Source: a virus (lineage: Duplodnaviria > Heunggongvirae > Uroviricota > Caudoviricetes). Taken from it: a stretch of DNA of 4,149 nucleotides. Positions 2,196 through 4,149 of the stretch are shown here, in pieces. The stretch is taken from IMG/VR virus record IMGVR_UViG_3300029517_000099, one strand, 5' to 3'. Under the pieces are notes generated by a model. That model did no database searches, was not told where the DNA came from, and worked only from the letters and a program-made list of their open reading frames with translations. Numbering within the stretch: the stretch's first letter is position 1; each line of letters begins with the position of its first letter. Position numbers and translations under genes: made by a program.

Positions 2196-2738
2196 TCAAG
2201 CCATTTTCTCAGCAAATGATTCACGCATGGGAATATATAGGGCATACTCAGCAACAGCTAACCAATTAGCAATCCGTTTTTCGCATGTGCTAAAACACCA
2301 CTCTGGGTGTGCATCATTTAGCAATTCAGCCATTTTGCGCTTAGTCATCCCCCGCCCTTCATAGCGTTGCCGGAGAATGCAAATCAATCCTGGATGCTCT
2401 GCCAGCACCTCACTTATGACTCGATCAATACATAACGCCTCTGCATCAGTACAATGCGCCAGCCAGCTCTTTTGCTTGCCGTTGATCATCTCTCGCAAAA
2501 ACGCTTCCAGCTCAGCTTTCTCTATTCCCGCTTTTTTCATTCTGCGCAGGGCTTCATTGATGGCTGTTTTCGTCAATTTTTTGGATGCCAACAACTGATT
2601 GAACATATTTCCTGACCTGCCACCGCCAATATACGACCAGCGCCCCCACATACGCAGTTTGCCCTGAATCCAGACACTTTCCAGCGTGGCGAGACGAAGG
2701 TGTTCTCCGCTTTTTCCTGTATTCGTTGGGTAAATCAC
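2196..2738 (-). CDS. Late-gene antitermination protein Q-like (P22 gp23 / Phage_antitermQ family), about 180 aa from a GTG start
   Basis: Strong RBS AAGGAGGG 7 nt upstream of GTG at 2738, which overlaps the TGA stop of the upstream gene (GTGA). Translation carries a WGxW motif (LRMWGRWSY) and a Y-x-G-x-GMT-x3-MA segment recalled from P22 gene 23-type antiterminators. Position is immediately upstream of a short spacer plus intrinsic terminator, the canonical Q-pR'-tR' arrangement. The track's ATG at 2858 would overlap the preceding gene by 124 nt and lacks an RBS, so GTG is preferred. Confidence 0.7.
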   Translation of the reverse strand: MIYPTNTGKSGEHLRLATLESVWIQGKLRMWGRWSYIGGGRSGNMFNQLLASKKLTKTAINEALRRMKKAGIEKAELEAFLREMINGKQKSWLAHCTDAEALCIDRVISEVLAEHPGLICILRQRYEGRGMTKRKMAELLNDAHPEWCFSTCEKRIANWLAVAEYALYIPMRESFAEKMA

Positions 2739-3025
2739 AAATATCCCTCCTTTCTCCAGATTTCTTGTGTGCGAAAAACACCTTCTGCATGCATCAGGCG
2801 TAATTCTTCTTTGGTGTAATCGCTGGTTTTTACCCGCCCGTCGATTAGATCGTGGCATGAGCTACAGGCAATCGCCGCCTGCATATCGTGTGGTTTTGTC
2901 GCTGTTCCGCACGTTCCCGCCAGTCGGTAATGCGCCAGCACAGACGTTTCCGGATCGTGATTGCAGTAGCCAGGAATTCTGACGGCGCACATCTGCCCCC
3001 GCGCCGCTTTACGTAAATCCACCAT
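2735..3025 (-). CDS. DUF1364 / YbcO-like Cys/His-rich phage protein, putative Zn-binding nuclease (96 aa)
   Basis: 96-aa ORF beginning MVDLRKAARG with conserved Cys/His positions (CAVRIPGYC, ACSSCHD) closely matching my recollection of E. coli DLP12 YbcO; start coupled to the upstream stop and its TGA stop overlaps the downstream GTG start. Confidence 0.8.
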   Translation of the reverse strand: MVDLRKAARGQMCAVRIPGYCNHDPETSVLAHYRLAGTCGTATKPHDMQAAIACSSCHDLIDGRVKTSDYTKEELRLMHAEGVFRTQEIWRKEGYL

Positions 3026-3624
3026 TACGCAAACTCCAGCAGCTGCGCGGCCACATTTTCGACTTGTTCCGGAGAGGAAAATTTACGGAACAGAATCCAG
3101 TTCCACAGCACATTCAGAACAGATTTATAAACCTGCTGAAACTCGGTTTCATCCATATTCGCAAAAGCGATGGATTTCGCCCGACGCCCATGGCTACCGT
3201 CCGGATAAAAATGTTCGGTGTAAAATCCAGCCTGAATGGTTACCCACTCGCGAAAAGCCTCAAACGACTTTAGCAATGCCGTATCCCGGGTTCTGCGTGT
3301 CGCAACTGTATTCAGATATTGCTCTGCGGCCTCACTCAGGGCTGGCGTGTGTTCCCGACCAACTGATTCGCACAGGTAATCAACGAAACCAGACAGCAGT
3401 TCTCGTTCGCGAGGCGTGATCGCCCCACCGACCGGAGTCCAGTAATCGAATCCCAGTTGCAGGAGTTTGAAAAAACGCTTGTGGAATGCGTAGTTACGCA
3501 CACGCTTAAAATCTGCGTGTATCCACTCACCTATTTTGATTTGATGCAGAAAATCGCAACTCTCCGGCGTCGCCGGGAGAAGTAAACCAGAAGAAGTTTG
3601 TTTGACCAGTTGTATATGCGCCAT
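3025..3624 (-). CDS. Phage nin-region protein, DUF1367-like (199 aa)
   Basis: Intact 199-codon ORF with ATG start at 3624 and weak GAGA-type RBS; its TAA stop overlaps the ATG of the next gene (TAATG at 3023-3027), indicating translational coupling; sequence resembles proteins found upstream of Q in lambdoid prophages. Family name is from recall, not a search. Confidence 0.75.
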   Translation of the reverse strand: MAHIQLVKQTSSGLLLPATPESCDFLHQIKIGEWIHADFKRVRNYAFHKRFFKLLQLGFDYWTPVGGAITPRERELLSGFVDYLCESVGREHTPALSEAAEQYLNTVATRRTRDTALLKSFEAFREWVTIQAGFYTEHFYPDGSHGRRAKSIAFANMDETEFQQVYKSVLNVLWNWILFRKFSSPEQVENVAAQLLEFA

Positions 3625-3682
3625 TTCTCAATCTCTCGATGGCGCAGTGCAGCAGATGCCAGTTGTTCAGGCTGACGTATAA

Positions 3683-3710
3683 AGTATAAATAAACTGGTT
3701 CCAGTGTAAA
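3683..3710 (-). promoter_or_regulatory. Candidate sigma70 promoter for the minus-strand nin-like/Q operon
   Basis: On the minus strand TTTACA (plus 3705-3710), 16-bp spacer, TATACT (plus 3683-3688), about 50 nt upstream of the ATG at 3624. AT-rich context, so it could be a chance match. Confidence 0.35.
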
Positions 3711-3746
3711 GCCCCCACATTGATGGAATAAAAATCAAACAATAGA

Positions 3747-3775
3747 TTGCTGGGATAAAATACAACGCTTATTAT
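3747..3775 (+). promoter_or_regulatory. Candidate plus-strand sigma70 promoter upstream of the small ORF
   Basis: TTGCTG (3747-3752), 17-bp spacer, TATTAT (3770-3775). AT-rich context makes a chance match plausible. Confidence 0.2.
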
Positions 3776-3898
3776 TAAAAGCGGTTAGACAAATTAAATT
3801 TTAATGTTATGCAAATTTGTCAGATCACCATAATATCTCATTTAAAAACCGCTGAAATAACAACCCTATCAGGGTTAATCATATTAAGGTGAGTAAAT

Positions 3899-3985
3899 AT
3901 GGAAAACAACAAATCTGCACATTACGTTCCTTTTTTATCTGTAATACTTTTTGTTTTATGCTGTGCGTGGGCATTATTTTTATAA
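3899..3985 (+). CDS. Candidate small hydrophobic membrane peptide (28 aa: MENNKSAHYVPFLSVILFVLCCAWALFL)
   Basis: ATG at 3899 preceded by a good SD (AAGGTGAG, 3886-3893); polar N-terminus followed by a single predicted transmembrane helix; lies in an AT-rich region, divergent from the phage operon. A perfect hairpin AACCCT-atc-AGGGTT (3862-3876) sits just upstream of the RBS. No homology was established. Confidence 0.3.
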   Translation: MENNKSAHYVPFLSVILFVLCCAWALFL

Positions 3986-4149
3986 AAATATTTACAGATG
4001 AAGTAAACCCGCCAATCAGGTTAACTGTGGCTGCGTTGAGGATGCATAATACATCAGAGGTTGCGGGGATTTCTCCCATAAGCGCTAACTTAAGGGTTGA
4101 ACCATCTGAAGAATGCGACGCCTCGGTGCCTCGTTAAGACGATGCCTCG

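Follow-up and report, generated by a model that had tools for sequence, protein, structure and literature searches.

A probable but unannotated 28-codon gene for a hydrophobic peptide in a modular AT-rich cassette of Escherichia coli prophages

The window, by which the whole analysed stretch of 4,149 nucleotides is meant, derives from an E. coli lambdoid (Qin-like) prophage. Near its right end there is a 380-bp gap with the first gene of a Q-type operon on one side and the tail of a hok locus on the other, and this gap contains a small ORF on the strand opposite to the DUF1367, DUF1364 and DUF1133/Q-like genes. The features of this region are:

About 2196 to 2738, minus strand: DUF1133 gene, a Q-like antiterminator, named antitermination protein Q in GenBank phage records
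About 2735 to 3025, minus strand: DUF1364 gene, from the annotation of near-identical loci
3025 to 3624, minus strand: DUF1367 gene, the first gene of the divergent DUF1367-DUF1364-DUF1133 operon (PGAP/GenBank annotation of near-identical loci)
3649 to 3988, both strands or none: conserved AT-rich cassette of ~340 bp with 29% GC that carries the small ORF
3886 to 3893, plus strand: Shine-Dalgarno (SD) sequence AAGGTGAG, 5 nt before the ATG, with a distance of 7 nt from the AAGGTG core
3899 to 3985, plus strand: small ORF with its ATG at 3899 and its TAA at 3983-3985, 28 codons: MENNKSAHYVPFLSVILFVLCCAWALFL
4005 to 4077, minus strand: hokD 3'UTR remnant, with 84% identity to the K-12 sequence that directly follows hokD
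4078 to 4149, strand not given: end of an IS421 copy (IS4 family) that is inserted in the hokD 3'UTR

The hokD 3'UTR remnant is convergent with the small ORF and contains a degraded copy of a terminator hairpin that is intact in relatives (AACCCGC-CGAA-GCGGGTT), which is consistent with the decay of a hok locus that has been cut off by the IS. The IS421 element itself is found in opposite orientations at the same hokD 3'UTR site in two otherwise collinear strains (L001 5439-6805, L002 5438-6804); the inverted segment comprises the whole element and about 15 flanking bases, L001 and L002 are 99.4% identical in it when one of them is inverted, and the orientation in the window is that of L002. 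K-12 has no cassette and carries rem instead, between ydfU and hokD.

Directly 3' of the Q-like gene, within 2034-2162, there is a bidirectional terminator-like hairpin (AAAAAACCGCATTAAGCGGTTTTTTT), and the same segment gives isrK-like Rfam matches on both strands that stay below the threshold (20-22 bits vs a gathering score of 50). Also downstream of the Q-like gene, at 1262-1448 on the minus strand, lies a full-length match to STnc100 (Rfam RF02076; 85.5 bits vs a gathering score of 47, E = 5e-18). The PasD prophage sRNAs have been found next to Q genes and are linked to STnc100 (2026 preprint, 10.64898/2026.05.13.724894); the Pas sRNA loci of that preprint are near lysis genes and Q/STnc100, and the cassette is not among them. 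Two adjacent minus-strand genes (~178-552 and ~724-1152), which are flanked by the Q region and the lysis genes (essD, rrrD), encode TolA C-terminal-domain or TolA-like cell-envelope proteins according to the PGAP annotation of near-identical loci, and these may be accessory (moron) genes.

With a query of 291 nt (3700-3990), the cassette is detected in 1184 of 5426 complete E. coli genomes (22%), usually as one copy each, and among the matches listed in complete E. coli genomes there is no annotated feature under it. It is also present in four induced temperate phages, including vB_EcoS-683R6 and -666R9. Four clades can be distinguished, all of them within Escherichia/Shigella: the window type with 95-100% identity, which is carried for example by E. 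coli EH10-18-47 (NZ_CP063499.1, 1284951-1285425), the 683R6 type with about 93%, the Qin-locus type (clade 3; about 89%), which is found in about 340 genomes, e.g. that of strain G3/10, and a distant clade (clade 2; 72-76%). The left limit of the cassette at 3649 follows from the alignment of clade 3, and at the right limit the homology ends 2-4 nt past the stop codon of the small ORF in three different downstream contexts. The left neighbour is either DUF1367 or a gene for a 92-aa hypothetical protein followed by DUF968/ydfU, and the right neighbour is the hokD 3'UTR, the anti-phage pair iteS/iteA, or a DUF1971 gene. In a first sample of 124 loci from IMG/VR and genomes, 49 had the whole cassette and 73 gave no match, even with DUF1367 proteins that share 96% identity or more. 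In Salmonella, Citrobacter, Pantoea, Kluyvera and other genera, no analogous small ORF was found ahead of the DUF1367 homologues, degenerate back-translated patterns for codon-divergent homologues had 0 hits in IMG/VR, and these searches yielded no homologue more distant than the four Escherichia/Shigella clades. The inheritance of the cassette is modular, and as it is kept while both neighbours change and has no match in other genera, it is an independently inherited unit that is restricted to Escherichia/Shigella and the far end of which is marked by the small ORF.

The slot to the right of the cassette has a cargo that depends on the strain, with Sll1717-family P-loop ATPases, AbiH, IteS/IteA, or hokD-relBE (read at L002 7038-9106, L125 3623-4531 and L126 2839-5286), and since this defence-type cargo differs between strains, the slot behaves as a defence/accessory hotspot. 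The cassette is thus at the border of a variable accessory/defence region (hokD, relBE, IteAS, AbiH and others) and a DUF1367 or DUF968-Q antiterminator operon.

The initial annotation of this DNA had drawn attention to a 28-codon ORF with a well-spaced SD, and this ORF is present exactly at 3899-3985, where an in-frame TGA (3890-3892) blocks any upstream extension. Also the peptide has the proposed layout, with a polar N-terminus (residues 1-10) that is followed by a single, uninterrupted hydrophobic helix of 18 residues at the C-terminus (P11-L28); of the paired cysteines that had been pointed out, C21 is invariant, whereas C22 becomes F in one clade. The region is AT-rich as described, with a GC content of 0.29 over 3675-3899 vs 0.45-0.56 in the neighbouring genes, and the ORF is indeed divergent from the Q-type operon, as DUF1367, DUF1364 and DUF1133 are all on the minus strand. 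Longer overlapping ORFs, which had been noted on both strands, exist at 3889-4137 (plus) and 3879-4079 (minus); these can be dismissed as genes, since they continue past the limit of conservation, into what is left of the hokD 3'UTR and into the end of IS421, and are therefore unconserved. A comparison across relatives had been proposed as a check, and it identified the 28-codon ORF, not the longer ones, as the conserved frame with signs of selection at the protein level.

As a single-sequence observation, the small ORF is not beyond chance: when 3625-4004 was shuffled 3000 times with its dinucleotides preserved, 8.2% of the shuffles had one or more equivalent ORFs, which start with ATG, are 25 codons or longer and are preceded at a suitable distance by an SD-like pentamer, and T-rich DNA gives hydrophobic peptides by default. 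Its significance rests on the comparative data. An exact look-up of 8 peptide variants among 15 billion proteins found none of them, a full-text literature search for the peptide sequence returned nothing, and the small-gene list from Ribo-seq of the Sakai strain (supplement of PMC5597208) has no match to the peptide, with the cassette probably being absent from this strain.

In all of 171 complete copies from IMG/VR contigs and genomes, the ORF has exactly 28 codons, and the 13 peptide variants encoded by these copies include no frameshift and no nonsense mutation. When substitutions were counted by Fitch parsimony on an NJ tree of 62 cassette haplotypes, 43 changes were placed in the ORF, no indel occurred in its 87 nt columns while the leader has indels, and the SD together with the ORF had 0.43-0.56 changes per column vs 1.09-1.34 in the adjacent spacers. 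The changes in the ORF are distributed over the three codon positions as 7:15:21, and 17 of them are synonymous and 26 non-synonymous. Synonymous sites conserved in a way that points to a different reading frame had been named as a finding that would speak against the ORF, and here frame +0 turned out to be the most synonymous of the six, with two other frames reaching 15. A simulation in which the observed mutation spectrum was re-drawn at random over the ancestral ORF gave a probability of 0.03 for 17 or more synonymous changes, of 0.003 for two or fewer replacements by polar residues or stops in codons 11-28, and of 0.23 for the chance absence of any new stop.

The replacements in the helix are V/A, V/I, V/L, C/F, C/G, L/F and I/V, and Ser is introduced by two rare tip variants. 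Invariant residues are M1-E2-N3-N4, H8, P11-F-L-S14, I16-L-F18, C21, W24-A25 and F27-L28. Between the window-type clade and clade 2, which are about 76% identical, also TTAAGGTG-N7-ATG is invariant, although the preceding 25 nt cannot be aligned. In the Qin-type clade 3 (roughly 340 genomes), the SD is weakened to AAAGTG, as it is to AAGGTA in one haplotype; the ORF of that clade is intact and differs from the window ORF at only three positions. The coding statistics are modest and come from tests of modest power, but the constant length, the excess of synonymous changes, the bias of helix replacements towards hydrophobic residues, and the SD and ATG that are kept between clades can be taken together as signs of protein-level selection, and the small ORF is probably a real but unannotated gene.

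The best explanation, to which we assign a probability of about 0.5, is that this is a moron-like gene for a small inner-membrane peptide that is transcribed against the phage early operon. Its own SD would drive the translation into a 28-residue peptide. As a single hydrophobic helix, the last 18 residues of the peptide would insert into the inner membrane and probably leave the N-terminus, which is polar and bears Lys, on the cytoplasmic side. In size and composition, the peptide agrees with the small hydrophobic peptides (<60 aa) that are a hallmark of type I toxins, its membrane insertion being predicted. Because of the orientation of the gene against the early-right operon and a base composition unlike that of the adjacent genes, a moron-like behaviour can be expected, with expression from the repressed prophage and with an opposing convergent early transcription in lytic growth; a transcription against the phage early operon would thus be suited to expression in the lysogen. 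The likeliest class of product would be a small membrane-acting modulator, for example one with a role in exclusion or in the envelope, or else a mild toxin of the membrane. Morons are recognised by a composition that is distinct from that of the flanking phage genes, and here a GC content of 0.29 contrasts with 0.45-0.56; they are further recognised by a variable presence among close relatives and a place between phage gene blocks, and the cassette, which lies between two such blocks, is present in 49/124 loci vs absent from 73/124, and occurs in 22% of the genomes. Also an own promoter and terminator belong to this picture, and for these there are candidates among the non-coding elements of the cassette:

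3710 to 3683, minus strand: promoter-like site TTTACA-16-TATACT (10/12) that reads into the DUF1367/DUF1364/Q operon, with the DUF1367 start about 60 nt further on
3747 to 3775, plus strand: candidate promoter of the small ORF, TTGCTG-17-TATTAT, from which transcription would start near 3782 and produce about 115 nt of 5'UTR
3767 to 3812, no strand assigned: block B, an imperfect inverted repeat GCTTATTATTAAAA - 18 nt - TTTTAATGTTATGC with arms that are near-invariant across clades and a variable spacer
3856 to 3827, minus strand: weak promoter-like site TTCAGC-18-TATGGT, the -10 of which is the conserved block C (CACCATAAT on the plus strand)
3862 to 3876, no strand assigned: perfect hairpin AACCCT-ATC-AGGGTT with a 6-bp stem and a 3-nt loop
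3905 to 3878, minus strand: promoter-like site TTTCCA-16-TATGAT that overlaps the ORF start, a candidate for an RNA antisense to the ORF leader

The candidate promoter TTGCTG-17-TATTAT is found in three clades (window, 683R6 and Qin type) and is missing from clade 2, where the -35 is displaced by an insertion of 7-8 nt. It is below the threshold of 9/12 in the promoter scan, and a PWM scan of clade representatives detected no plus-strand sigma-70 promoter that is common to all clades. The hairpin downstream of the small ORF, a putative terminator, belongs to hokD or, in the 683R6 type, is bidirectional; in clade 2 it is weak.

The main rival to the moron-like gene is a non-coding divergent regulatory spacer, a view that we consider tentative and on the improbable side. 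The cassette would then be the divergent control region of the Q-antiterminator operon, consisting of the TTTACA-16-TATACT promoter, an upstream palindromic operator or UP region (block B), and weak terminators against transcription that reads through from early-right, and the 28-codon frame would persist merely because the T-rich DNA is constrained for regulatory functions. TTTACA-16-TATACT is in fact the sole promoter-like site that is kept at the same position in all clades, including clade 3 with its different downstream gene, and because of this it is suggested that the Q-type operon may have its own promoter in these phages. Moreover, conservation in the cassette is highest in non-coding sequence, namely in block B, which is its most conserved non-coding element and may act as an operator, as an UP element or as an RNA stem, and in the Q-operon promoter region; block B and 3649-3712 are conserved as much as the ORF or more, with the block-B-anchored sample being biased for block B and not for the ORF. 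On the minus strand there are terminator-like hairpins with T-tails at 3877->3861 and 3783->3766, which could deal with the read-through, but they are weak and unconserved across clades. Within the ORF, the two runs CCTTTTTTATC and TGGGCATTATTTTTATAAA are conserved at the nucleotide level and show no synonymous change at all, possibly owing to a role of the DNA or RNA itself, and the degraded SD of clade 3 as well as the 8% chance of such an ORF in a single sequence fit this view, too. What speaks against a regulatory spacer is that variation in the ORF has a three-base periodicity with a synonymous excess and with replacements that preserve hydrophobicity, that SD and ATG are kept where the directly adjacent bases vary, and that no haplotype has an indel in 87 nt. 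In addition, some 190-300 bp separate the ORF, at the far end of the cassette, from the Q-operon promoter, and no regulatory role is evident for that end.

A type I toxin-antitoxin module, in which a membrane-depolarising toxin is held by a cis-encoded antisense RNA, is an unlikely alternative, although several observations would fit it. The size and composition of the peptide are like those of ShoB- or Ibs-like toxins, with a short polar N-terminus and a hydrophobic C-terminus that ends with LFL, and the ORF adjoins the toxin/defence genes hokD, relBE, IteAS and AbiH. The antisense RNA would have to start from the minus-strand sites 3905->3878 or 3856->3827, overlap the leader or block B, and end near 3766-3757, and promoter-like sites are indeed found on this strand at the same alignment positions in several clades: the -10-like sequence of block C is TATGGT, TATGAT or TATGCT at the same alignment position in all clades, and at the other site the -35 TTTCCA is fixed by the ATGGAAA of the ORF while the -10 varies between clades. 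Block B, the best conserved non-coding part, would be part of such an RNA, and a plus-strand helix, 3804-3811/3829-3836, switches from G·U to G-C between clades. The sole terminator-like stem for the candidate antisense RNA has only 5 bp and decays to G·U pairs and mismatches in clade 2, and the plus-strand promoter that is needed for an overlapping leader is missing in that clade. The predicted folds are no better than shuffles (z = -1.3 for the candidate antisense RNA and +0.9 for the presumed mRNA), and RNAalifold gave weak consensus structures on both strands.

Also the family searches did not point to a toxin. The resemblance to type I toxins that had been noted initially has no counterpart in any known toxin family, as the peptide has no match above noise in Pfam, NCBIfam, PHROGs and PADLOC at E<=10; its best profile matches are a 12-bit lipoprotein leader and the leader of an Rz-like spanin in PHROGs (E = 0.009). 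The cassette matches no Rfam family and no antitoxin RNA even with permissive filters, and no direct repeats were found that could supply a trans-acting antitoxin. The search for an antisense RNA over the leader, which had been recommended, thus led to no Rfam family and to no convincing antisense gene, but only to weak promoter-like sites and the decaying 5-bp stem.

It had further been proposed that a perfect hairpin that abuts the RBS could occlude translation. The hairpin at 3862-3876 is perfect, but it is nine bases away from the SD and does not overlap with it, its occurrence is confined to the window-type and 683R6-type clades, with no counterpart in clades 2 and 3, and the MFE fold leaves the SD largely unpaired. 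Among its variants in the two clades, one is compensatory (AATCCT/AGGATT), and several have wobbles or mismatches or are one-sided, fitting neither strand consistently. A boxB/nut-like element can be dismissed, as the loop does not fit, a boxA is missing and the hairpin is unconserved. A masking of the SD by a 12-nt inverted repeat (3825-3836/3881-3892) was also rejected, since the anti-SD TCACC changes to TTAGC or TCAGC while the SD is fixed, which is no covariation. An mRNA structure that masks the RBS, one of the features by which type I systems are recognised, was thus not found, with the hairpin being 9 nt off and unconserved, without covariation, and with z = +0.9 for the fold. The type I toxin-antitoxin reading and the hairpin-occlusion mechanism are therefore not supported as far as can be judged from comparative sequence data, and we regard it as doubtful that the cassette represents a new family of prophage small membrane toxins or exclusion peptides that is controlled by a short block-B antisense RNA and unannotated in about 22% of the E. 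coli genomes.

It is very improbable that the ORF is a relic, i.e. a signal peptide or lipoprotein leader that was orphaned when its gene was truncated at a recombination boundary: the end of the ORF coincides with the homology boundary, there is the weak PHROG match to the Rz-like spanin leader, and clade 2b has a lipobox-like LFAGC, but the same stop codon and the C-terminus WALFL* are found in four clades before three unrelated downstream sequences, so that the ORF end is inside the conserved unit, and the n-region has no net positive charge. A lipoprotein or spanin leader was also rejected on the basis of the lipobox [LVI][ASTVI][GAS]C, which is approximated in clade 2b only, the other clades having VLC, VFC or ACC with L, F or C as the -1 residue.

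The moron-like gene thus stays the preferred reading, and as the probability of translation is the sum of those of the moron-like and the type I toxin readings, the ORF can be considered a likely translated gene. The sequence family is new, whereas the kind of object is familiar, being a tiny hydrophobic prophage ORF that was missed by annotation. If the peptide is made, a widespread unannotated small membrane protein would have to be added to the prophage repertoire of E. coli, with an occurrence in about one fifth of the complete genomes, and it would be a concrete case of what is missed by the length cut-offs in annotation pipelines. It would then also be a candidate for effects on lysogen fitness, exclusion or abortive infection, because its site is the junction of an accessory/defence hotspot and a late-gene regulator operon. 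If the ORF is untranslated, the cassette still marks a previously uncharacterised, conserved divergent control region of the Q operon, with a promoter and a palindromic upstream block.

Among known systems, the small hydrophobic type I toxins of E. coli, such as ShoB, Ibs, TisB, ZorO, DinQ and Hok, are comparable in several respects. Like in these cases, the product would have less than 30 residues with one hydrophobic helix, the SD is strong, and the ORF is intergenic, was missed by annotation pipelines, and has a neighbourhood rich in toxin and defence genes. Unlike these toxins, it has no sequence similarity to the ShoB, Ibs, TisB, ZorO, DinQ and Hok families, and an antitoxin RNA, a conserved SD-sequestering structure or a long structured leader were not found. 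YnfS and YnfU, small proteins of the K-12 Qin prophage that were found by ribosome profiling, are unrelated in sequence and position, and K-12 has no cassette, but they are likewise encoded by tiny intergenic ORFs of a Qin-type prophage that were long unannotated.

Phage morons are autonomous accessory genes that are inserted between phage operons, for example bor and lom of lambda or the morons of HK97 and HK022. In comparison with classic moron proteins, a 28-residue product is far smaller, the promoter and terminator of the cassette are only candidates, and the cassette is no simple insertion, since the conserved region with the promoter of the neighbouring Q operon is part of it. Like morons, it is small, AT-rich with a foreign composition, placed between two phage gene blocks, and present in only some of the close relatives, and its orientation would allow an expression that is independent of the lytic operons, with a hairpin that follows it in most contexts.
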